Assembly (NCBI GenBank): GCA_042217555.1
Contig: JBDGSL010000017.1
Span: forward strand, 1 to 13,967
Length of the DNA stretch: 13,967 bases
From: Candidatus Nanohalobium sp.
Lineage (GTDB): Archaea > Nanohalarchaeota > Nanosalinia > Nanosalinales > Nanosalinaceae
Direction of reading: 5' to 3'
Shown here: positions 1,909 through 13,200 of the stretch, in pieces
How positions within the stretch are numbered: position 1 is the stretch's first letter
Layout: the number at the start of each line of letters is the position of its first letter
Position numbers and translations under genes: made by a program
The notes under the pieces: generated by a model
Databases searched by the model: none
Told to the model about the DNA's origin: nothing
What the model saw: the letters and a program-made list of their open reading frames with translations, nothing else

Positions 1909-2175
1909 TCAAGATTTTTGCCGTCGACCTATATACCAATCTATCTCACCTACGTCATTGGCTAAAATTTTAGCAATCGCTCGGTGGTTTCCATCATTAA
2001 TCATTCCCCAGGTATCGGCTATTTCCCAGTCCTTTTCTCCGTGGACTTTATTCATTCTATCTCTCTTACTGGCTCTATTTCCAGGAGTTACGACCCATGG
2101 CAGAAATTCGTTCAGGACTTCAGGAACTTCCTTTAACGCCATTATGTATTTCACACTCTGATATTCATCAGGATC
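1909..2175 (-). pseudogene. 5'-truncated ParB/Srx-like domain protein fragment
   Basis: It carries the 'MINDGNHRAIA' (DGxHR) motif. The frame continues upstream of the GTG at 2154 (DPDEYQSVKY) into compositionally different sequence in front of the integrase, with no convincing start. Confidence 0.4.
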
Positions 2176-2204
2176 TGCGTCCGGGATCAGTGACGGATGT
2201 GACG

Positions 2205-3806
2205 ATGCGGATGGGGGTTAGAAAGTCGGTTGCACAACAACCGACCGACACGCATCGTGAAACAACAACCAAGACAAACTATGACAGTTCCGACATACAC
2301 AGAAGACTCGAAACCCTCAAAAACAAAGACTGCGTCTCAAAACGCAACGCACAACTTCTCGACGAGTTCGTAGAAGAACTCCAGGCACGAGACGGCACAA
2401 GCGACAGCAGAACAGTCTGGTACATCTCCAAATTCTCCACAATCCTACAACAATACCTCCGAAAAGACAGGTTCGAGAAAGACACACGAATCGACAGAAC
2501 ACTGGAACACGACCAACTGGACGAACTCACCAAATCCGACCTACTAGCAGTAATCGGCGTAATGAAGAAACTGCCGATGAACGACCTCTGGACAAAAGGA
2601 GTAGAAACCAAAGAAGGAATCCTCACACCGTTACAAGCTGCAGAAAGACTTACAGAGGAAGCATTCAACAGCCTGGAAAAGATCTACTCCGACTCCGTGA
2701 AGTACAAGGACTACGAACCCAGCGAAGAAATCTTCAACCAACTCCAAGACTACTCCGCAGCAAAAGTAGAAGACGGCGACTACAAGCTTACAGAGTTCGG
2801 AGAGAACATCAAAGATGTTAGCGAACCTGAGAAGTATGTGGAGAAAACCATGAACGGGTTCAAGACCGCCTTCAAGATGTTTCTCAAACTCCGCCACCCC
2901 TTGAAGATGGACAGACCTCGGAGAGTCAAGAGAATCATCCAGTCAGGAATTCTCAAAGGCAACACAGACGCAGACAGAAAAACCGAACTCCGCCTGTTCA
3001 GCCCCGAACAAATCTGGAAAATGGTAGAAGCAGCCAGAAACCCCAGAGACGCCCTACTGCCAATCCTATGTCTTGATGCAGGAGCCAGGAACAAGGAAAT
3101 CAGGAAAGTAAAGCTCTCTGACATAGAAAAGCAGTCCGAGACATGGATAGTAGAGTTCATCGACTCCAAAAACGGAAAACCGCCAAGAGACCTACCTTTG
3201 ACACACTGCATCGAACAGCTACGGGCATGGCTCGAAAGCCATCCACGAAAAGAAGAACCTGACGCACCACTGTTCGTAACACTTAACGACAAAGGGTACG
3301 GAGAGAAAGGCAGTGAACTCAAGAAAGAGAACATCAACAAGATCCTGAAACGGTTAGCCAAAAGAGCAGACGTAGTAGACAACCCAGAAACTGTCAAAGT
3401 CTACGATTTCAGGCACTCATCCGCCACATTCAGAGGCACAGAACAGGACTGGGGAGTCTCCAGGATGATGTACTGGTATGCGTGGAAAAAGCCAGACCGG
3501 GCGAAAACCTACTGCCACGAGGACAACAAACGGATGACAGAAGCCATCCTGAAAGACAAAGGAATCAAAACCGAGGATAACACCAACAACTCGATGCAGA
3601 TGCAGGAATGCCCACGCTGCGAGGAAAAACGACCAGCCAACGCCGAATACTGTCCAAAATGCTCTCTGCCTTTGGACAGCGAGACAGCCATGAGAGACGC
3701 AGACCTTAAGAAAGCAGCCAAAATCCTCGTAGACATCAAACTCGACGAAAAAATCGAAGACGAAGAACTCAAAGGACGTCTACAACGAGTCAGAGAAGGA
3801 ATCTAA
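2205..3806 (+). CDS. Tyrosine recombinase/integrase with C-terminal zinc ribbon
   Basis: Catalytic residues are R (GARNKE), K (DSKNG), YDFRH (the HxxR box with Y), W (YAWK) and Y (KTYCH). It also has 'PDAPLFV' and CPRC...CPKC, typical of archaeal integrases. The start is uncertain (ATG 2205 or 2211; the ORF is open from 2097). Confidence 0.9.
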   Translation: MRMGVRKSVAQQPTDTHRETTTKTNYDSSDIHRRLETLKNKDCVSKRNAQLLDEFVEELQARDGTSDSRTVWYISKFSTILQQYLRKDRFEKDTRIDRTLEHDQLDELTKSDLLAVIGVMKKLPMNDLWTKGVETKEGILTPLQAAERLTEEAFNSLEKIYSDSVKYKDYEPSEEIFNQLQDYSAAKVEDGDYKLTEFGENIKDVSEPEKYVEKTMNGFKTAFKMFLKLRHPLKMDRPRRVKRIIQSGILKGNTDADRKTELRLFSPEQIWKMVEAARNPRDALLPILCLDAGARNKEIRKVKLSDIEKQSETWIVEFIDSKNGKPPRDLPLTHCIEQLRAWLESHPRKEEPDAPLFVTLNDKGYGEKGSELKKENINKILKRLAKRADVVDNPETVKVYDFRHSSATFRGTEQDWGVSRMMYWYAWKKPDRAKTYCHEDNKRMTEAILKDKGIKTEDNTNNSMQMQECPRCEEKRPANAEYCPKCSLPLDSETAMRDADLKKAAKILVDIKLDEKIEDEELKGRLQRVREGI

Positions 3807-3871
3807 AACATTTCCTTCTTATCTTCTATTCTTACACCGAACTTTAATTCAAGAAAAGCAAATTAGCTACC

Positions 3872-4867
3872 ATGAACCCTGAAGAAATGGTTCAGAAAAT
3901 CCTTGAGAAAGAGTTTCCTGATAGAGAACCTGTAGATACTTACCCGGCCGAAGGAGGTTTTGCACACGACACATTCTTCATAGATTTCAAGGACGAGAGC
4001 TTTGTACTGAAGATAAACGGTTTAGCTGACTTAGTCGAAAAACAGAACCAAGACTGGAATGCTCGGTTTGAAACTGAACCTTATGTACTGGATTTAATCC
4101 GCCAAAAAACCGATATTCCCGTTCCCGAATGTGTCGCAAGAGATACTTCCGAAACCACTATACCTGAATACTACCACATACTGCGAAAGATGGAAGGCTT
4201 TGCTCCGGCAGAAAGCTCTTCTAACCCTGCCTTCAGAAATTTAAGAGAGAACAAAAAGGAACAGATTTTACAGAAACTGGGAAATAATATCGCAAAACTC
4301 CATCAGATACAGTTTGAGGATTTTGGCGAGTTGAGAGTTAAAAATAAAGAATTGACAGTTGAGAAGGCTGAAGGATGGTCAGAATTATTTCATGAAATGA
4401 TATTATTCTGGATAAACCAATTGGAAGGCGGCAAGTTCGATGATCTAATACCTGAAATCAAGAATGCTGTTGAAAGAAACCTGGATTTGATAGAAAATGT
4501 AGGAGCACCTGTCTTGGTTCACAGAGAGGTAGACACTAAGAACATACTTGTTGAAGATGGCGAGCTTGCAGCGATTCTGGACTGGGAGGCATGTGTGGCG
4601 GGACACGGAGAATTTGACCTTGTGACAACAGAAGGAAGAATGATAGCACACAGCTTCAGCACAGACAGTATCTGGGAAAAATACAGGAAAGAACTGTATA
4701 AAGGCTATGAGAATATAAGGAATTTGGAAGTTGGCTGGGAGGAGAGAAGACAATTATATCTCCTATATCCTATGACTCTGGAAATGGCTTTCCATTCTGA
4801 CTCAGGAGCAAACAGCGAAGAAACAATCAGAAAAAGAACGGGAAAGATTCTCGAAGAATTACTTTAA
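3872..4867 (+). CDS. APH/choline-kinase-family phosphotransferase (atypical HRE catalytic loop)
   Basis: Motifs FVLKI, IPVPE, LAKLH-type helix, LVHREVDTKNIL and ILDWE. Confidence 0.85.
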   Translation: MNPEEMVQKILEKEFPDREPVDTYPAEGGFAHDTFFIDFKDESFVLKINGLADLVEKQNQDWNARFETEPYVLDLIRQKTDIPVPECVARDTSETTIPEYYHILRKMEGFAPAESSSNPAFRNLRENKKEQILQKLGNNIAKLHQIQFEDFGELRVKNKELTVEKAEGWSELFHEMILFWINQLEGGKFDDLIPEIKNAVERNLDLIENVGAPVLVHREVDTKNILVEDGELAAILDWEACVAGHGEFDLVTTEGRMIAHSFSTDSIWEKYRKELYKGYENIRNLEVGWEERRQLYLLYPMTLEMAFHSDSGANSEETIRKRTGKILEELL

Positions 4868-4890
4868 GTCTCAATTGAAAATTAACAGTT

Positions 4891-5907
4891 ATGCCTGATG
4901 AGAAAGTAGCTAGAGAGATAGTCAAGCATGAGTTTGATGATCCTGTAATTAAGAATGTCAGAGATGTTTCAGGTCTTTCTCACGCCGTCTTTATTGTAGA
5001 ATTAGAGGATAGAGAGGTTGCTGTCGCCTACTGTTATGAAGAAGTCCTGGAACATCGTTTCGAAGTGGCAGCCGAAACCACGGAACTTGTCGATGAAAAG
5101 ACAGATGTACCCGTTCCAGAAGTAATTTCTGTTGACCTGAGCAAAGAAAATATTCCGCATATGTACTATGTAATGGAGAAAATTGAAGGAGAAGCGATGA
5201 GTGTTTACGGCGGAACACCAGATTTCAGAAGATTCAGTAGAGAAAAGAAAGCAAAAATATTAGAACAAGTAGGAAAACACCTAGGAGAAATCCATAGCGA
5301 AATCCAGTTTTCAAAACACGGAAACATAAGCTATGACCTGGAAAAGAAAGAACTAACGGTAGAAGAGTGTTCAGAATGGCCTGAAGCACTTAGAGAAATA
5401 CTCAACGAACAAATACAAGACATAAAAGATGGAAGATTCTCCGACCTCATACCACAAATACAGGAAATAATAGACGACTACATCCATCTCGTTGATAGAG
5501 AATTTCAGCCTGTCCTTGTACATCAAGACTGTCTGCCCCAAAACATTATGGCAGATGGAGACCAAGTTACAGCTATAGTAGACTGGGAAAGAGCAGCTTC
5601 AGGACACAAGGAATACGACTTCTTCAAGACCGAAAGAGGATTTATTAGAACCGCATTTGAAACTGAAGAAGTTAAAGAACAATTGAGAAAACATCTTTAC
5701 AGAGGCTATCAGGAAACTAATAGTCTGAAAGAAGGCTGGGAAGAGAGAAGAGAATTTTACAACTTCATCTACTACATCAACAAAATTTGGGCTTATCCCG
5801 GAATAGTAGAAGACTGGAATTCAGAAGACAAGGACGAATTTGAAGGACAAATAAGAGAAGAATTTGAAGACATAGTTGAAAGAACCAAAGAAAGCCTAAA
5901 AACCTGA
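4891..5907 (+). CDS. APH/choline-kinase-family phosphotransferase
   Basis: Motifs VPVPEV, VMEKIEG, LVHQDCLPQNIM and IVDWE. It is a tandem paralog of the upstream gene. Confidence 0.9.
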   Translation: MPDEKVAREIVKHEFDDPVIKNVRDVSGLSHAVFIVELEDREVAVAYCYEEVLEHRFEVAAETTELVDEKTDVPVPEVISVDLSKENIPHMYYVMEKIEGEAMSVYGGTPDFRRFSREKKAKILEQVGKHLGEIHSEIQFSKHGNISYDLEKKELTVEECSEWPEALREILNEQIQDIKDGRFSDLIPQIQEIIDDYIHLVDREFQPVLVHQDCLPQNIMADGDQVTAIVDWERAASGHKEYDFFKTERGFIRTAFETEEVKEQLRKHLYRGYQETNSLKEGWEERREFYNFIYYINKIWAYPGIVEDWNSEDKDEFEGQIREEFEDIVERTKESLKT

Positions 5908-5909
5908 TT

Positions 5910-7412
5910 TTACAGCTCTTTTATCATTACTTTAACGCCTATATCCCTACCTTCTATGTCTTGCTTTCTCTCCTCTGTGACTTCATAACCATTTTTCCTG
6001 TAGAAATCAATTGCTTCCAGAGACGCCAGAGTCTCCATTTCCTCCAAGTTTTCTTCTCTGGCTTTCTCCTCTAGTTTCTGCATCAATTTTGAACCAATCC
6101 CTGATCCTTTCAGGTCTGGATCGACAAATATTCCTGCAACCGTACCGCTCTCCTTCTGAAAACCAGCTACGCCTACAATCTCACCGTCCTTTACAGCCAC
6201 AAAATAAACATATCTATCCTTTTCAGCAAACTCCAGGTTCATATCAGGGATTACTTCTTCCAAATGCCTTTGCTGTTCCTTAGAATAATACTCCAGCTCA
6301 ATATCCTCGACTGCTGCCCGAATTAAATGCCGTATATTGTCTTTATCTTTGTATCTTCTGATTTTCATTAATTCCCCCCCCCGGTCGTAGCTTATTTCCT
6401 TTTCAGCCGCCTTTTTTAGATTCTTCTGACGTTTTCTGAATAGTTGCCTGAAGAATTCTTCCTCTTCTTTTACTTCTTTTTGGCTTAGCCCTTCTCTTTC
6501 AGTCCAATTTTCGAATTTCTTCATACCTTCAAAGTTTTGAATCATGCTGTAATAGGTTATTCTCTGTTTCCATCGACCTTTAAACTCTCTCTGATTTCTA
6601 TATCCTCTGAAGAATTCTCTTTCCAGTTCTTGATTAATGCTCTCTGTCTCAAACCAGCGGTAAATCATCGAAACTCTGGAATTGGCGAGATCCCATTCGG
6701 GCGGCCCTGAGATAGCTTTCTCCCAGTCAATTACAGCATTTATATGATCATCTTTGACTATGAGATTATTTGGAGAGACATCCCAGTGGATGCAACAAAA
6801 GTAGTCGTTTGTATCGGCGAGATCTATATGCTGATCTACGAACTGTCGAGCATCCTCCACCATATCACTGAAACGAGTGTTTTCAAGTTCTTCGAGGCGT
6901 TCAAACGCCATTTGTTTCAAGTATTCTTTCCACTCGTGCTCCTCTATCTCTATTTCGCCATTTTTGTAAATTATTTCGCCGGCAGAGTCGAACTCGACCT
7001 TTTTATGGAGTTCTCCTAGATATTCTCCTGCTTCTTTCACGATATTTCTTTTAATTTCTCTTGGCAGATATTTGAACCTGTTCTGTGGATCATATCCTTC
7101 AATTTTTTCGGCTATGTAGAATAGATAAGGTACTTTTTTCTTTGAAAAGTCCGATTTCAGTATTTTCTGTGTAGGAATATCTGTCTTCTGGTTGACAAGT
7201 TCCACGAGCTTTTCCTCCTTCATGAACCGCCTCTCGTATTCCGTACTGGTATTGGTGCAAAGGTAAACAATTAGGCTATCTCCTGATTCAAGTTTAACTT
7301 CAAGAACATCTCTTGCGAAACCTGAATCATATTTCCTAAAGGATTTTACATCATAAGATGCCTCCAACGAACTCACAGTATTCTGAACCATTTGATCTGA
7401 AATTTCGGCCAT
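5910..7412 (-). CDS. APH-family phosphotransferase joined in frame to a GNAT acetyltransferase (possibly two genes)
   Basis: The kinase part has IHWDVSPNNLI and VIDWE. The GNAT part starts at ATG 6368 (MKIRRY) and has FVDPDLKGSGIGSKL and AIDFYRKNGY. A G9 run at 6374-6382 sits at the junction. Confidence 0.85.
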   Translation of the reverse strand: MAEISDQMVQNTVSSLEASYDVKSFRKYDSGFARDVLEVKLESGDSLIVYLCTNTSTEYERRFMKEEKLVELVNQKTDIPTQKILKSDFSKKKVPYLFYIAEKIEGYDPQNRFKYLPREIKRNIVKEAGEYLGELHKKVEFDSAGEIIYKNGEIEIEEHEWKEYLKQMAFERLEELENTRFSDMVEDARQFVDQHIDLADTNDYFCCIHWDVSPNNLIVKDDHINAVIDWEKAISGPPEWDLANSRVSMIYRWFETESINQELEREFFRGYRNQREFKGRWKQRITYYSMIQNFEGMKKFENWTEREGLSQKEVKEEEEFFRQLFRKRQKNLKKAAEKEISYDRGGELMKIRRYKDKDNIRHLIRAAVEDIELEYYSKEQQRHLEEVIPDMNLEFAEKDRYVYFVAVKDGEIVGVAGFQKESGTVAGIFVDPDLKGSGIGSKLMQKLEEKAREENLEEMETLASLEAIDFYRKNGYEVTEERKQDIEGRDIGVKVMIKEL

Positions 7413-7418
7413 AAAACA

Positions 7419-8210
7419 TCACATCTCTAAAGTTTTGAAGTCGCTCCAGACTTCGTAACCTCTCTTTTCGGCTGCCTCTTCCAGTTCTTCTGTGTGCATC
7501 TGGTTTAGGTGTTCGCTGATGTTGACGAGAACTGTTCTATCGGCGTCTACCTGTTTGATATTCTGTTCTATTTCTTCTGTGTATCCGTGGCTTTCTGCTC
7601 CGAACAGTTGTCCTTCTATCAAAGCAATATCAGCATTCTCGTAACAGTCTTCGTCTTCGGGAATATTGCGGACATCAGGCACATAAACAACCTTCTTGCC
7701 CTCTTTCCGGATCACATAACCCTGTGTTTCTTCTCCGTGTTCGACCTTGAAAGCCTCTACAGTGACATCGCCTACTTCGACTGTCTCTCCCGAACTCATA
7801 GTTTGGAAGTTGATGTTTTCGTTTTCGGCTATGTGGCTTTGCTTTTCCTGCAGGTAGTTCTGGGTTGTCTGGTTCCCGTAAACTGTTATTTTTCTTCCAT
7901 GCCAGCCGTTATAGTCGAAATCCTCAGGATTCAAAACGTGCTCTTCTATAGCGATATGATTAAGTTCACGGATTCCTGAAAAATGATCGAAATGGTAGTG
8001 TGTAAAAAAGAACCCATCAACATCAAAAACTTCGACTTCATGCAGCTGCTCCTTGATCTCAGGACTCATCTCGAAAACCAGAGTAACATCATCCGTCTCA
8101 ACCAGTAGACTTGGTCGTCTTCTCTTCTCCGATTCCTGACAGTATTCACAATTACACATAGGAACAGGCATGCCGATCGCATCGCCAGAACCAAGCAGAG
8201 TCACTTTCAT
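7419..8210 (-). CDS. PhnP-like metallo-beta-lactamase-fold phosphodiesterase
   Basis: N-terminus LGSGDAIGMPVPMCNCEYC and THYHFDH (HxHxDH). ATG 8210 overlaps the upstream stop (ATGA), with GGAGG just upstream. Confidence 0.85.
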   Translation of the reverse strand: MKVTLLGSGDAIGMPVPMCNCEYCQESEKRRRPSLLVETDDVTLVFEMSPEIKEQLHEVEVFDVDGFFFTHYHFDHFSGIRELNHIAIEEHVLNPEDFDYNGWHGRKITVYGNQTTQNYLQEKQSHIAENENINFQTMSSGETVEVGDVTVEAFKVEHGEETQGYVIRKEGKKVVYVPDVRNIPEDEDCYENADIALIEGQLFGAESHGYTEEIEQNIKQVDADRTVLVNISEHLNQMHTEELEEAAEKRGYEVWSDFKTLEM

Positions 8211-8956
8211 TTTTGAACCTCCCAAACCGATCTTACAGGTTTTTCAAGCTCTTCTCTATCAAAGCCCTGATAAACACTCCATTCAAAGAATTCTACCAAC
8301 TTAAGAAGTAGTTCAAACTCTCTTTTGGAGACCAGCTTAGTTTTGAACTCATTCTCCCAAACAATCTCATCCTGAGAGTTGTATAATTCGTTCTTTACTG
8401 TTCTTATCTGTTCTACTTCGCTTTCCCAGTTAACCTCAACTACTCTTTCGTATTCCTCACCTTCAATCTCTACTTTTTCGGTTGATCGTGACCCTTCTCC
8501 TGTTCCTTCCGCTACTTTCTCGAAGTCAGGTATATAGAAATCTACTATCAGCCTTCCGTCTTCTTTCAAATGTTCTTTACAGTTCTCCAGTGTTGATATC
8601 TGTTCTTCGATGGTTAGGTTGTGCATGAAGGTATTGAAAGGTATTATAATCAAGTCAAATTTTTTATCATAGTTAAAGTCCTCCATCTTAGCCTGCCTTA
8701 CTTTCGTATCTAAGCCTCTTTCACCAGCCTTCTCCCGCAATTTTTCCAACATTTCTTCTGATATATCGAATCCATAAATATCGGCTCCATTCTCTAAAGC
8801 ATCAAGGTAAATTCTTCCAGTTCCACAGCCGATCTCCAATACTCTTCCATCAGTCTGTCTTATTTCATCTAGATAGAATTGAACATCTTCTCCGTCTTCT
8901 GAGTAAATATAATCGTAGTATTCTGCCCATCCTTTGAACTGATCTTCATCAACCAT
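8207..8956 (-). CDS. Class I SAM-dependent methyltransferase
   Basis: Motif I VLEIGCGTGR, plus GFDISEEML, FDLII and LKEDGRLIVD. Confidence 0.9.
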   Translation of the reverse strand: MVDEDQFKGWAEYYDYIYSEDGEDVQFYLDEIRQTDGRVLEIGCGTGRIYLDALENGADIYGFDISEEMLEKLREKAGERGLDTKVRQAKMEDFNYDKKFDLIIIPFNTFMHNLTIEEQISTLENCKEHLKEDGRLIVDFYIPDFEKVAEGTGEGSRSTEKVEIEGEEYERVVEVNWESEVEQIRTVKNELYNSQDEIVWENEFKTKLVSKREFELLLKLVEFFEWSVYQGFDREELEKPVRSVWEVQK

Positions 8957-8992
8957 AGAAGAAGCTTTAATCTGTTTGAATAAAAATTCGTT

Positions 8993-9466
8993 CTAATCCC
9001 ACTCCACTGGTTCGTATGCTTCTGGGTAGAGTTCCTGGATCTGGAATTTCTGGATTTGAGGGAACAAATTCCATTCCCCACGTTCCTTTCTGACGAAGTT
9101 GCTGACCAGTACTGTTGTGTCTTTGTCTCCGAACTCGTTTATTGCGTGTCTACAAGCTCCACAAGGCATAGTTCCCTTGTGATCTTTATCTGGTACTGGC
9201 CCCGCTACCAGTACCGCTTCTATCTTTGAATATTCGGTTTCTTCGTACTGTAGCTGGTTTATAGCGTGTCTCTCGGCACAGAAATTGAAACTTGGCTGGC
9301 TCGACTCAAACGGTTTTCCTTCATAGATTTCTCCGCTTTCGGATAATACGAAGGCGTAGATAACATCGTATAGATCGTTTTCCCAGCGATTCTTGGCGTG
9401 CTCCTCGATTCTTTCTCTGGCATACTCTATTAGCTCTTCTTCGTGTTCTGTTAGTTGGTCACTCAT
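8993..9466 (-). CDS. Cytidine deaminase family protein (three-Cys Zn site, as in tetrameric CDA/blasticidin-S deaminase)
   Basis: Zn-binding motifs FCAERHAI and PCGACRH. Confidence 0.85.
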   Translation of the reverse strand: MSDQLTEHEEELIEYARERIEEHAKNRWENDLYDVIYAFVLSESGEIYEGKPFESSQPSFNFCAERHAINQLQYEETEYSKIEAVLVAGPVPDKDHKGTMPCGACRHAINEFGDKDTTVLVSNFVRKERGEWNLFPQIQKFQIQELYPEAYEPVEWD

Positions 9467-9998
9467 AGTACTCGTCCTCTAAAATACTCATCCAGGTGAC
9501 GTTTTTCCATTCTCCGTCTACATACTTGTAGTCTCTTTCTGTGCCTTCTTCTTGGAATCCTGCTTTCTCCATTACCCGTCTTGACGCAGGATTACCTTCG
9601 AGATAACCGCCCCTGATCTTGTGACGATTTAAAGTCTCGAAAGTGTAGGTTACTACCATTTTCAGGCTTTTTGTTCCGATTCCTTGTCCGTGGTATTCTG
9701 GGTGTACAAAGTATCTTATGTGGCTACGTCCATAATCACTTTCCAAACCACCAAGAAAGATATGGCCGACCTTCTCTCCTTGATACTCTATGAGGAAGTG
9801 GACGCTTTCATCATCTGAACTAAATTCTTCAATATACTCTTCTTCTTGAGATACATTAATCGGTCTTGGAGCTCTACCAAGGTATGCTCTGACTTCTCCG
9901 TGGCTTATTGTTTCTGCGATAAACTCTGCGTCTTCCATTTCTACTGGTCGGAGAACTACATCATCCCATTCCATAAACTTACTTGTTGTTTCTGTCAC
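9459..9998 (-). CDS. RimJ/RimL-family GNAT N-acetyltransferase
   Basis: Motifs LRPVEMED, HPEYHGQGIGT and NPASRRVMEKAGF. The likely GTG start at 9998 overlaps the upstream TGA and has AGGTGA 6 nt upstream. Confidence 0.88.
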   Translation of the reverse strand: MTETTSKFMEWDDVVLRPVEMEDAEFIAETISHGEVRAYLGRAPRPINVSQEEEYIEEFSSDDESVHFLIEYQGEKVGHIFLGGLESDYGRSHIRYFVHPEYHGQGIGTKSLKMVVTYTFETLNRHKIRGGYLEGNPASRRVMEKAGFQEEGTERDYKYVDGEWKNVTWMSILEDEYYE

Positions 9999-10525
9999 TG
10001 CCAATCACCTTCTACAACGCCGTAGTAAACGACATCTTTGTATTCTCCCTGTTTGAAGGTGTGGTCTTTGAATACTCCTTCTTTGTCGAATCCAAGTTTT
10101 TCCCAGACACTTTGTGACGCCTTGTTACCTTGATAGGCTCGTGCGTATACTTTGTGGTAGTTTAGCTGGTTGAAGGCGTAATCTGTAATTAATTGTGACG
10201 CTTCTGTGCCGTATCCGTTTCCGTGGTGGTCTGGGTGTATCCAGATACCGATTTCGGCAAGTTTTTCTGCGTTATCGCCTTGAGGCATCAGACTGATTAT
10301 ACCCATTTTTTCTTCATCTCTGGATATCATCAAGTGTACTGTGTCTTCTCCGCAGATTTGTTCTTCAAAGAACTCTTCTTCGTTCTCAAGGTTTTGAGGT
10401 TTTCTGTTACCCATATATACACGGACTTCAGGGTGATTTACTCCATCTCGGAGAAATTCTATGTCTTCCTCTTCGATTGTCCTTAAGTTGATTTTTTCGC
10501 CTTTAAGAAATACTGTTCCAGCCAT
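9995..10525 (-). CDS. RimJ/RimL-family GNAT N-acetyltransferase
   Basis: Motifs LRTIEEED, EIGIWIHPDHHGNGYGTEA and NKASQSVWEKLGF. Confidence 0.9.
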   Translation of the reverse strand: MAGTVFLKGEKINLRTIEEEDIEFLRDGVNHPEVRVYMGNRKPQNLENEEEFFEEQICGEDTVHLMISRDEEKMGIISLMPQGDNAEKLAEIGIWIHPDHHGNGYGTEASQLITDYAFNQLNYHKVYARAYQGNKASQSVWEKLGFDKEGVFKDHTFKQGEYKDVVYYGVVEGDWQ

Positions 10526-10580
10526 AGAGAGGATTTTCTTTCAGGCTGTTATAATTTTAAGGCAATTGCTTCTATATCTG

Positions 10581-10593
10581 GAAAAGATTTAAG
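10581..10593 (+). promoter_or_regulatory. Archaeal BRE/TATA-like promoter for the proS leader
   Basis: GAAAAGA-TTTAAG, with the TATA-like part 25-30 nt before ATG 10618. This spacing is expected for a leaderless archaeal transcript. Confidence 0.55.
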
Positions 10594-10617
10594 AAACTCA
10601 TCACATCTCTGATAGTT

Positions 10618-10647
10618 ATGTCTGGTGACTACGTTCCTCGGCAGTAG
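10618..10647 (+). CDS. Putative leader peptide uORF1 (MSGDYVPRQ)
   Basis: ATG TCT GGT GAC TAC GTT CCT CGG CAG TAG. It sits at the predicted transcript start and shares a motif with uORF2. Confidence 0.6.
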   Translation: MSGDYVPRQ

Positions 10648-10699
10648 AATATTTGAGAGTTCTTTTAGTCGCCAGAATACCGAATTTTCCGTGATTTCT

Positions 10700-10756
10700 A
10701 TGAACAAAGTTTCAACTACAGGTGGATACGTTCCACCACGACAACAGATTCGATAA
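10700..10756 (+). CDS. Putative leader peptide uORF2 (MNKVSTTGGYVPPRQQIR)
   Basis: It has tandem CCA CCA Pro codons at 10733-10738 and shares G-x-Y-V-P..R-Q with uORF1. Confidence 0.6.
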   Translation: MNKVSTTGGYVPPRQQIR

Positions 10757-10862
10757 CTATCGAAACTTTGGAGAAGTTTCTGGTGTTGCAGAAACTCGAA
10801 GAGTTTCGAACCACTCAAAATCCTTTAACAACACTTTTTTCCTCAACTTCTGGTGAACGCTG

Positions 10863-12083
10863 GTGAGACGCAGTAATCTCTTCGTAACCAGTTCCAAAGA
10901 GACAGAAGCCGACACGCACTGTAAAAGTGCCGAACTTGCGGTACAAGCAGGGCTTGTCCACAACTACGGCTCTGGAACCTTTGGATTCTCCCATCTCGGT
11001 CAGAGAGTTCTGAATAACATAGAATCAGTGATCAGAGAAGAAATGGACGAAATCGGGCAAGAAGTGAAGATGAACCTTCTCCAGACCAGTGAACTGTGGG
11101 AGAAGTCAGGGCGTTGGAAGAACTTTGAAGGAGAAGAGTTCTTCAACTTCAAGAACAGAGACGACAAAGACTTCACCATCGCCGCAACACACGAAGAAGC
11201 ATCCGTAGAACTCACAAAGAAGTACATCCGAAGCTACAGGGATCTCGACCTAACGATCTACCAGATCGGCAGAAAGTTCAGAGACGACCACGCCAGAAAC
11301 GGTCTTTTGCGGACGAAAGAGTTCATTATGAAGGACGCCTATAGCTTCCACAAAGACAGAGAAGGGCTACAGGAGAAGTACCGTGAGTTCCTCAACGCCT
11401 ACCGAACTATCTTCGACAAGCTCGGACTTGAGTACTCTGTCGTTGCCACTGACAACGGCTCTATGGGAGGAAGTCAAAGCCACGAATTTATGGCCGAAGC
11501 AGAAATCGGAAGCGACACCTACCTGAAATCCGACAACTGTGAGTTCGGAACCAAGAATCTTGACACTGGAAACTGTGGCAACTGTGGTTCAGAGCTCCGT
11601 GAAGTGAACGGTATAGAGATCGGTCACTGTTTCAAACTTGGAACCCGATACAGCGAATCTATGGATCTAACCTTCGATACCGAAGAGGGAGATACAGAGA
11701 ACGTGGTTATGGCCAGTTATGGGATCGGAGTAAGTCGATTGATTTCAGCGATCATAGAGCAGAATCACGATCAGAATGGCATCACTTGGAATGAAGAAGT
11801 GTCTGCTTTCAACTTTTCTGTGATTGCCGCAAGGCACGAAGAGGAAGTAACGGAGAAAGCAGAGAGCATCTATCAAGAGCTACAGGAGCAGGGAGTAGAC
11901 GTTCTGCTTTATGACGGTCAACTATCTACAGGCGAGCAGTTCAGGGAGTCTGATCTTCTCGGAGTCAACCGCAAAGTTATCGTGGGCAGTAATTTCCTTG
12001 AGAACGGAAAGATTGAGATAGAGTCCAGAAGCGGAGAAAAGAAGGAAGTTGAAGCAGGAGAAATGGTGGAAGAAATGAGCTAA
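10863..12083 (+). CDS. proS: Prolyl-tRNA synthetase, bacterial-type, short form without the INS editing domain; contains no proline
   Basis: Motifs include LWEKSGRW, THEE, motif 2 YQIGRKFRD...EFIMKDAYSF, MGGSQSHEF, GIEIGHCFKLG, motif 3 MASYGIGVSR and a class IIa anticodon-binding domain. It starts with GTG. Confidence 0.93.
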   Translation: MRRSNLFVTSSKETEADTHCKSAELAVQAGLVHNYGSGTFGFSHLGQRVLNNIESVIREEMDEIGQEVKMNLLQTSELWEKSGRWKNFEGEEFFNFKNRDDKDFTIAATHEEASVELTKKYIRSYRDLDLTIYQIGRKFRDDHARNGLLRTKEFIMKDAYSFHKDREGLQEKYREFLNAYRTIFDKLGLEYSVVATDNGSMGGSQSHEFMAEAEIGSDTYLKSDNCEFGTKNLDTGNCGNCGSELREVNGIEIGHCFKLGTRYSESMDLTFDTEEGDTENVVMASYGIGVSRLISAIIEQNHDQNGITWNEEVSAFNFSVIAARHEEEVTEKAESIYQELQEQGVDVLLYDGQLSTGEQFRESDLLGVNRKVIVGSNFLENGKIEIESRSGEKKEVEAGEMVEEMS

Positions 12084-12159
12084 CAACTTCTTTCTCCTAA
12101 TTTTTCGGTGGAATCGAAAACTCAAGAGTTTTCTTAATCCACACGAAATCTCCGATTTC

Positions 12160-12230
12160 GGCGGGATAGTGTAGCGGCATCATCGCACGTTCGGGACGTG
12201 CGGACGGCGGTTCGAATCCGCCTCCTGCCA
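12160..12230 (+). tRNA. tRNA-Pro(CGG)
   Basis: The cloverleaf has acceptor GGCGGGA/TCCTGCC, D-arm GTG/CAT, anticodon arm GCACG-TTCGGGA-CGTGC, T-arm GGCGG-TTCGAAT-CCGCC and discriminator A. It has no intron and no separately encoded CCA tail. Confidence 0.95.
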
Positions 12231-12322
12231 ATTGCATATACCTTAATTTTATAGAAATCCCGAAACTGCCAAAGCATTTCTGTGGAATAAATTCTAAAGT
12301 TTAGCTTACTGAAGGTTTGATT

Positions 12323-13084
12323 ATGGAAGAGAAAGCGAAGGAATGGTGGGAGGTAACAGCAGGCTATTTTCAAGATGAAGCAGATGTACCGATAGCCATC
12401 CATTATGGAACAGGTTCTCCTTTAGAGGACAAACTGGGATTAATAGAACAGGATTTAGAAGGCAAGAAAGTTCTGGAAATGGGCTGTGGTGCAGCTCAAG
12501 GAGGAATAGCATTTGCGAAGAAAGGTGCAAAAGTTACAGGAGTAGATATTTCAGAAGAACAACTGGAGATAGCCACAGAATTGATAGATGAACATGGAGT
12601 TGACATTGAACTACACCAGGGAGACATCAAAGACATGGAGACGATAGAATCAAGCTCTTATGATATAGTATACTCTGCATATGCTTTCCAATGGTTGAAA
12701 GATATTCAAGCAGTATTCTCGGAGGCTCATAGAGCATTAAAATCAGGCGGGATGTTCCTATTTAGTCTTCCACACCCCTTCTTCCAGTTTTTAGGAGGAG
12801 AAATTGAAACCCAACAACTTGATATTGAAGAACATTATCTGGATGCAGATGTATCAAAGACAGAGCAACTTGAGGAAGATGGAGAAGAATATGAAATGAT
12901 TATCTACAGGAGGACTGTAGGCGAACTTTTCAATAGCCTCAGGGAAGCAGGATTTCAGGTAGATAGAATTATCGAACCTGACCCGAGAGAAGCAGCAGGA
13001 GATGAAGGCGAACAATGGGTTGACCAAGACCTGCTTTCCAAAGTTCCATCCACTGTAATATTTAGAGCTTTCAAGGAGGAATGA
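12323..13084 (+). CDS. Class I SAM-dependent methyltransferase
   Basis: Motifs VLEMGCGAAQ, GVDISEEQL, YDIVYS and LKSGGMFLFSLPHP. Confidence 0.9.
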   Translation: MEEKAKEWWEVTAGYFQDEADVPIAIHYGTGSPLEDKLGLIEQDLEGKKVLEMGCGAAQGGIAFAKKGAKVTGVDISEEQLEIATELIDEHGVDIELHQGDIKDMETIESSSYDIVYSAYAFQWLKDIQAVFSEAHRALKSGGMFLFSLPHPFFQFLGGEIETQQLDIEEHYLDADVSKTEQLEEDGEEYEMIIYRRTVGELFNSLREAGFQVDRIIEPDPREAAGDEGEQWVDQDLLSKVPSTVIFRAFKEE

Positions 13085-13200
13085 GCCGGGTCCTGCCATA
13101 TTATTCATAAGTAAGCAAATCAATATACCGTAATATGGAAACCGAGTTTGAATCGGTAGGCGGTAAAGACGCCGACTTCAATCGGAAACAGGGTATCAGC

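Follow-up and report, generated by a model that had tools for sequence, protein, structure and literature searches.

The window analyzed here is the whole 13,967-nt contig JBDGSL010000017.1 (C9), part of a Candidatus Nanohalobium sp. genome of 1.31 Mb that is 94% complete. Between positions 10581 and 12230 it carries proS, a gene for a spare prolyl-tRNA synthetase (ProRS) without a single proline, preceded by a leader with two short upstream open reading frames (uORFs) and followed by a tRNA-Pro(CGG) gene. As the initial annotation described, the promoter-like box, the uORFs, proS and the tRNA all lie on the + strand, the tRNA 76 nt past the proS stop. The frame architecture of the leader, which was not part of that annotation, suggests how the gene could be controlled by charged tRNA-Pro. 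The locus comprises the following parts (SD, Shine-Dalgarno; BRE, transcription factor B recognition element):

10581-10594, + strand: BRE/TATA-like promoter box, with a TATA-like TTTAAGA at 10588-10594, 24-30 nt 5' of uORF1
10618-10647, + strand: uORF1, MSGDYVPRQ
10621-10631 paired with 10666-10676, + strand: hairpin 1, covering the SD-like element of site 1
10624-10638, + strand: predicted +1 shift site 1, with SD-like GGUGA, E-site UAC, P-site GUU (10633) and A-site CCU
10634-10699, + strand: relay frame 1, the +1 frame of uORF1, open, Pro-free and in frame with uORF2
10700-10756, + strand: uORF2, MNKVSTTGGYVPPRQQIR, with its own SD-like GUGA and ATG
10721-10737, + strand: predicted +1 shift site 2, with GGUGG, UAC, GUU at 10730 and CCA, within the small hairpin 2
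10731-10856, + strand: relay frame 2, the +1 frame of uORF2, 41 codons, open and Pro-free, with its TGA (10854-10856) inside the proS SD and 6 nt before the start
10755-10808, + strand: 54-nt palindromic insert, not in the second copy of the locus on contig C83; it leaves the frame intact and introduces neither a stop nor Pro into relay frame 2
10863-12083, + strand: ProRS open reading frame, GTG start, 406 aa, 0 Pro, 0 CCN codons
12160-12230, + strand: tRNA-Pro(CGG), intronless, RF00005 53.8 bits, with G1-C72, A73 and G37

A second ProRS purged of proline

The spare enzyme was rightly recognized as a second, bacterial-type copy beside an archaeal one: it scores 422 bits against TIGR00409 (cut-off 306.7) and 116 against TIGR00408 (cut-off 437), and the ordinary archaeal-type ProRS of the same genome, with 21 prolines in 511 aa, is encoded separately on contig C27. 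The class II motifs are kept (THEE, R140/R150 of motif 2, KDAYSF, and YGIG..R of motif 3), and in an alignment of 45 sequences T109, H110, E111, R140, R150, D158-Y160 and G287-R292 are invariant or nearly so. The protein also aligns with ProRSs in the PDB (E 1e-87). No YbaK/INS match is found, and the INS editing domain, which is usual but not universal in bacterial-type ProRS, is absent; the alignment gap holds a short Cys-rich insert.

At the genome Pro frequency of 3.5%, the probability of meeting no proline in 406 residues is 5.7e-7. Only three of the 701 open reading frames of at least 200 aa in the genome are Pro-free, namely the two copies of the spare proS and a 271-aa coiled-coil-like frame. 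Among the best 120 of 7,994 homologue matches, the 72 with at least 60% identity contain 8 prolines in 27,722 residues (65 of them none at all), and the 48 more distant ones 10-30 each. The Pro-free enzymes form a single clade (support 1.0 in a FastTree tree of 63 sequences), with Pro-containing haloarchaeal-type enzymes as its sister (support 0.997); as the tree was rooted by midpoint, what it says about the donor lineage goes no further than this sister group. Ten alignment columns hold Pro in 56-98% of the outgroup, and prolines conserved in 96-98% of relatives are among those removed: all 18 clade members have replaced them, except for one column in which two members keep Pro. Judged by its sequence, the spare enzyme could thus be completed without any Pro-tRNA. 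Horizontal acquisition, as proposed in the initial annotation, fits an enzyme of the bacterial type; the sister group is haloarchaeal, so the transfer would be old, and the tRNA is not a co-transferred bacterial gene.

The spare proS occurs in 12 of 70 genomes of the phylum, all of one family, and in 2 of 8 single-contig genomes. The archaeal-type ProRS is present in 57 of the 70. Nine of the 12 carriers have it, and the genomes of the remaining three are 75-82% complete. The neighborhoods of the carriers vary: three are GNAT/APH/methyltransferase clusters, three lie upstream of the housekeeping proS (0.2-1.5 kb), two beside a class I lysS, and four elsewhere. On this distribution, the spare proS is an accessory gene. 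No relatives of the spare ProRS were found among viral contigs, and a plasmid collection yielded only distant bacterial ProRSs and no haloarchaeal neighborhoods.

The bin shows strain mixing, with a partial extra archaeal proS and a second copy of the spare gene on contig C83. The latter is 95.6% identical and likewise followed by a tRNA-Pro(CGG). It is probably a strain allele rather than a true duplicate, because the upstream GNAT pair is common to both copies and the same runs contain the two alleles.

Frame architecture of the leader

Leaders were compared across 16 loci (L089-L101 and L103-L105), with two duplicates and one partial gene excluded. AT-rich TATA-like boxes are seen by eye at a comparable distance in most of 15 loci, and the mRNA would be leaderless, beginning at or near the uORF1 ATG. 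The uORF1 pattern M-x-[GC]-[DEG]-x-[VI]-P is present in all 15 loci with the first site assembled, although one lacks an ATG at the usual position. The sites within the uORFs share the consensus GGUG(A/G)-N4-[GAC]U[UC]-CCN; 14 loci have two of them, L092 has three, and L100 has one, with a gap hiding its upstream part.

The strongest evidence lies in the reading frames that follow these sites. Downstream of the 32 sites, the 922 codons of the +1 frame are free of both stops and Pro. Over the same segments, frame 0 has 76 stops and 54 Pro (937 codons) and frame +2 has 51 stops and 33 Pro (905 codons). All 32 segments are open and Pro-free, where shuffles give an expectation of 1.7; when kinship is allowed for by keeping a single locus per cluster (10 clusters), the log10 probability that all are open is still about -16.7. 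All 16 site-to-site distances are 3n+1 (85-121 nt), so that a +1 shift in one uORF leads into the reading frame of the next. From the last site to the proS start the distance is 3n in 15 of 16 loci (60-297 nt), with the +1 frame ending at a TGA that overlaps the start codon; stop and start overlap at -4 in these 15, the window being at +6. In L092 no ATG lies between the first two of the three sites, leaving the middle segment reachable only through a slip.

The composition of the sites is equally restricted. The A-site codon is CCT in 12, CCA in 12 and CCG in 8 cases and never CCC, the sole Pro codon that reads Pro again following a +1 slip; the P-site codon is GTT in 28, ATT in two, and CTT and GTC in one each. 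Each site has one Pro codon, sometimes two, and no runs. Its Gly codon is GGT in 31 of 32 sites against a genome usage of 24.6%, so that the constraint acts on the nucleotides. The proS start is the weak GTG or TTG in 11 of 16 loci.

We consider it probable that the accessory Pro-free ProRS is turned on at translation when charged tRNA-Pro is scarce, via serial +1 slips and reinitiation. With ample Pro-tRNA, a ribosome starting at uORF1 on the leaderless mRNA would decode GUU-CCU and terminate at the uORF1 stop. When Pro-tRNA is short, it would pause with CCN in the A site and GGUG(A/G) paired with the 16S rRNA immediately upstream of the E-site codon, and by analogy with prfB the tRNA-Val would slip +1, from GUU to UUC. 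The ribosome would then enter a frame that in the sequence is open, Pro-free and that of uORF2, and a second slip at site 2 would bring it into another such frame ending on or beside the proS start, where it could reinitiate. The enzyme, finished without Pro-tRNA, would recharge the host tRNA-Pro. With two slips needed, or three in one locus, the serial sites would make a high-threshold switch; the ATG of uORF2 may add a one-step route, and the tRNA gene would be an optional extra dose. The leader and the Pro-free composition agree with the inducible backup suggested in the initial annotation, which missed sensing by a frameshift relay.

Several observations limit this interpretation or weigh against it. 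The window allele is itself an exception, as a 1-nt insertion puts the stop 6 nt upstream of the start; this is still within the range taken as predictive of termination-reinitiation (PMC10666635). That a TGA overlaps the start is in part automatic, as the first base of codon 2 is A in 16 of 16 loci, and therefore only frame and openness are informative. The GGUG(A/G)-type motif alone is unspecific (19 matches in the genome, of which four are these sites), and it was derived from the same 16 loci, with the frames not used in defining it. GGUG(A/G) ends 4 nt 5' of the P-site codon against 3 in prfB, the commonest GGTGA spacing ahead of starts being 6 nt, and re-pairing from GUU to UUC requires a first-position mismatch. 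The assembly did not yield the 16S 3' end, and the anti-SD paired with the leader sites is an assumed one. Initiation at uORF2, with its conserved SD and ATG, may make site 1 dispensable, weakening a strict AND gate, and the conserved hairpins could instead work by stall-and-refold. With these points weighed, the locus is real and strongly selected, and the relay is predicted with good odds.

Two other routes into the shifted frame were rejected. Near-cognate initiation in the +1 frame would have to use a codon that differs between sites (ACG, GCG, GTG and others), at a distance of about 2 nt from the SD-like element; for transcriptional slippage the sites lack a homopolymer run.

In three genomes (L092, L281 and L282) the last relay frame has 94-104 codons and an acidic, similar-looking sequence. 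The L092 form gave no Pfam match. This frame possibly encodes a small protein made solely by frameshifting.

Related leaders on other synthetase genes

The same type of leader is found on other synthetase genes, which were located by family searches, a regular-expression search having given only 9 candidates. In this genome glyS (G000:C3:51530) and valS (G000:C75:9629) have single uORFs in which GG-R-F is followed by the cognate codon. No such leader site was found at 12 other housekeeping synthetase genes of this genome, proS included, nor were leaders of tyrS and serS found within 260 nt upstream. Across the phylum the GG-R-F-[G/V] uORF pattern occurs in 27 of 70 genomes, with one match in the reversed control. 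For 24 of 30 loci fetched, the +1 frame ends at -7 to +10 of glyS (14, with a Gly codon) or valS (10, with a Val codon), an assignment judged by N-terminal likeness to assigned genes. Six Val-codon leaders (L260, L272 and L275-L278) have a +1 frame without a long open reading frame at its end, and may be multi-site relays or leaders of other genes. The glyS and valS relay frames show no avoidance of Pro and often include the residue cognate to their gene; full cognate avoidance is therefore special to the spare ProRS.

The housekeeping archaeal-type proS is preceded by one GG-x-VP site in two genomes without the spare ProRS (L279 in G039:C6 and L280 in G056:C23), with the +1 frame ending 6 or 3 nt before the start (-6 or -3). 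The 12 additional GG-x-VP matches comprise these two housekeeping proS leaders, seven that are chance or unresolved (L284, L286-L290 and the gapped L283), and three ProRS-type leader lookalikes with the gene cut or partial. Among haloarchaeal-type metagenome loci, six of nine (two near-identical) have a uORF ending in ARG[RW]VP, with the +1 stop at -3 or +8; these loci have no GGUG element and encode Pro-containing enzymes, and the uORF is absent from seven bacterial-type loci. As GC-rich frames stay open easily, this one-site form in haloarchaea is only suggestive.

Sparing of the cognate residue extends to other enzymes. All 32 HisRS matches across the phylum (loci L219-L248 among them) have 0-5 His in about 420 aa, against about 8 expected at the frequency of this genome; the housekeeping HisRS here (G000:C48:12942-14237) has one His in 432 aa, and TrpRS one Trp in 367 aa. 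HisRSs encoded by a single gene are His-poor throughout the phylum. Cognate-sparing is thus a habit of the lineage, and supply shortage is therefore favored as the main cause.

Two extra HisRS-like genes stand in tandem around a tRNA-His at L236 (G065) and L238 (G049), behind an open reading frame that we take to be an ATP phosphoribosyltransferase lookalike. These loci are a possible histidine counterpart of the spare-ProRS locus.

Taken together, we think it likely that Nanohaloarchaea, and probably some haloarchaea in the one-site form, rely on programmed +1 frameshifts at hungry cognate codons as their general means of sensing amino acids for the control of synthetase genes. At the spare ProRS two or three such shifts would be chained into an AND gate with relay frames and enzyme purged of Pro, and in some loci the last relay frame would be a conserved starvation-only protein of about 100 aa.

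Competing explanations, known systems and significance

Scarcity of host-supplied proline appears the most likely selective cause, by a cautious preference, and an inhibitor or toxin of the archaeal-type ProRS or its tRNA comes next as a real but lesser possibility; the leader sensor itself cannot tell the two apart. Scarcity is favored by the lineage-wide sensors, by the proline-synthesis genes not found and by linkage to housekeeping synthetases, and an inhibitor by patchiness, the change of enzyme type and detoxification-like neighbors. The explanation by resistance, which we hold only tentatively, is that an antibiotic, proline analogue or toxin hits the archaeal-type ProRS or tRNA-Pro, selecting the same switch on a bacterial-type enzyme that is insensitive. 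The spare is indeed a paralogue of the other ProRS type and patchy in occurrence, nine of 12 carriers keep an intact housekeeping enzyme alongside it, three of 12 have surroundings rich in GNAT, APH-kinase and methyltransferase genes, and the window contains an integrase. Duplicated synthetases differing in antibiotic susceptibility are known (PMC4787780). Yet in five of 12 carriers the spare lies outside such islands, beside the housekeeping proS (three) or lysS (two), the same sensor type is present on housekeeping glyS, valS and proS, and no candidate inhibitor was identified. Moreover, neither proC nor ornithine cyclodeaminase was found in five of five carriers tested, by searches whose controls matched in 14 and 7 of 14.

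A stricter version of the initial annotation, in which synthetase and tRNA are a dedicated co-evolved pair that bypasses the host tRNA-Pro, is unlikely. A tRNA does lie 26-76 nt past the stop in five full-length loci and one partial locus; one subgroup (L089, L101, L103 and L035) has a D-loop and T-stem of its own, whether the anticodon is CGG or UGG, and the linked tRNA of G047 is additional to UGG and GGG genes. Co-transcription with proS is plausible, the gap in the C83 copy being 26 nt. However, the tRNA is present in only five of 14 assessable full-length loci (three CGG, two of them from this genome, and two UGG) and absent from nine, two further loci being not judgeable, so that to call the locus a self-contained cassette overstated the case. 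The tRNA-Pro(CGG) folds as a normal tRNA, is of nanohaloarchaeal type, and shares its G1-C72 acceptor type with the intron-containing host tRNA-Pro(UGG) on C88. Compared with the housekeeping gene, the G047 copy has two T-stem changes that break pairs, and the allelic tRNA-Pro(CGG) of C83 (L183:10231-10302) has A37, where G37 is the norm in tRNA-Pro. The window's tRNA is literally the genome's only CGG tRNA, which the initial annotation would have counted against its proposal, yet this is weak, as CGG matches occur in other nanohaloarchaea but in 0 of 8 single-contig genomes, with a search pattern that misses some genes. On these comparisons the linked tRNA is an optional extra and not an orthogonal partner.

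Classical attenuation without a frameshift, in which a stalled ribosome melts the hairpins and frees the proS SD or blocks termination and the open +1 frames are incidental, seems improbable to us. Two conserved hairpins do lie over the sites. In 14 of 16 loci aligned, helix 1 is paired in 85% of cells with five of 11 pairs changed on both sides, a covariation score reached by 0 of 500 shuffles, although relatedness inflates this significance; helix 2 is 96% paired with no pair changed on both sides. In E. coli pheL, frameshifting is incidental to attenuation (PMC5009743). But the leader as a whole has no folding advantage over its shuffled versions (z -0.9 and -0.6), there is no conserved helix over the proS SD, the helices pairing inside the uORF region, and the sites hold single Pro codons rather than runs. 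Attenuation also leaves unexplained the conservation of frame through many indels, the absence of stops and Pro solely in the +1 frame, and the absence of CCC. In the frameshift relay, the two helices would hide the SD-like elements, which may keep these from serving as start signals.

That the window shows a bacterial contig with its ordinary ProRS, or a product of faulty assembly, as the enzyme type and the strain mixing might suggest, can be set aside: the contig is archaeal, as assumed from the start, with nearest homologues named as Nanohaloarchaea and an archaeal-type proS elsewhere in the genome, single-contig genomes hold both enzymes, and public contigs are identical to the window's leader, with no differences.

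Upstream of the locus, positions 2097-10525 hold a tyrosine recombinase followed by three APH-family kinases (one GNAT-fused), an MBL hydrolase, a methyltransferase, a cytidine deaminase and two GNATs, which looks like a detoxification-like island. Downstream, and outside the proS system, lies one further feature:

12323-13084, + strand: methyltransferase gene in the segment 12231-13098, bounded by a repeated tRNA 3' end at 13088-13098

This segment is probably an element integrated at the tRNA. In L035 the sequence otherwise found past the repeat directly abuts the tRNA, with the methyltransferase segment missing between them. More tRNA-Pro 3'-end fragments lie close to the ends of C11, C39, C40 and C55, and tRNA-Pro looks like an integration hot spot. 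Two short palindromic inserts (10755-10808 and about 12103-12155) are not in the C83 allele, and public contigs show both forms; weak matches at other places in the genome point to a small family of repeats.

The closest parallel to the leader is bacterial prfB, in which the E-site codon is UAU. The predicted leader sites resemble the prfB site in having an SD-like element inside the reading frame, a weak E-site codon of Tyr type and a slippery NUU in the P site, and would resemble it in a slow A site that reports the activity of the gene's own product and in the +1 direction (PMC5009743). In prfB the trigger is UGA and the product a fusion, whereas here the trigger would be a sense Pro codon, two or three sites stand in series in an archaeon, re-pairing would be from GUU to UUC, and the uORF sites would end in reinitiation. 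In the ketolide-induced ermC leader, described in PMC5009743, a uORF frameshift likewise switches on the main gene by carrying ribosomes toward it, but it is drug-induced, largely sequence-independent and acts by RNA unfolding; here it would be programmed, amino-acid specific and serial. In C. elegans zip-2, a +1 frameshift from an upstream open reading frame similarly senses elongation defects, but the case is eukaryotic, answers general elongation stress and yields a fusion protein. In Haloferax volcanii, termination-reinitiation likewise goes with a stop placed between -8 and +10 nt relative to the following start (PMC10666635), but the upstream "gene" here would exist only after frameshifting. 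Biosynthetic enzymes, such as a Trp-free tryptophan synthase alpha, avoid the residue in short supply as this enzyme does (PMC4209129); here it is a synthetase, with total loss and near-invariant prolines removed.

Leader-peptide attenuators have a run of cognate codons, which this leader lacks. An Rfam scan of 10500-12320 found only the tRNA at gathering score, with no T-box or other element in the leader. The leader lacks a defining feature of each of prfB, attenuators and T-boxes. In Streptomyces (TrpRS) and B. subtilis (thrS/thrZ), a second synthetase is reportedly induced on aminoacyl-tRNA shortage, as here, and is said to be controlled by transcriptional attenuation or T-box antitermination, unlike here; none of the auxiliary leader-regulated synthetases is known to be cognate-free. 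The remark in the initial annotation that no system of this form is described needs a caveat, in that a leader-regulated auxiliary antibiotic-resistant TrpRS is in print. Titles cited in PMC4787780 cover the leader-attenuated antibiotic-resistant TrpRS of Streptomyces and thrS/thrZ of B. subtilis. No published description of the relay was found in the literature searched, which covered few subscription papers.

Little is known about how archaea adjust the levels of their synthetases to the supply of amino acids. One demonstrated programmed frameshift in archaea (-1) is listed in a 2021 review, and a 2016 review knows of no starvation-specific product of hungry-codon frameshifting. If the relay is true, it would be the first natural amino-acid-specific use of such frameshifting and the first +1 programmed frameshift in archaeal chromosomal genes. 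The leader offers short, exact and mutable sites testable in Haloferax, and serial frameshift gates would make a compact amino-acid biosensor. The enzyme points to a class II synthetase able to lose every proline, near-invariant ones included. For the Nanohaloarchaea, frameshifting at hungry cognate codons would play the role taken in bacteria by T-boxes and attenuators, and the leader would provide a readout of what limits host-dependent symbionts.

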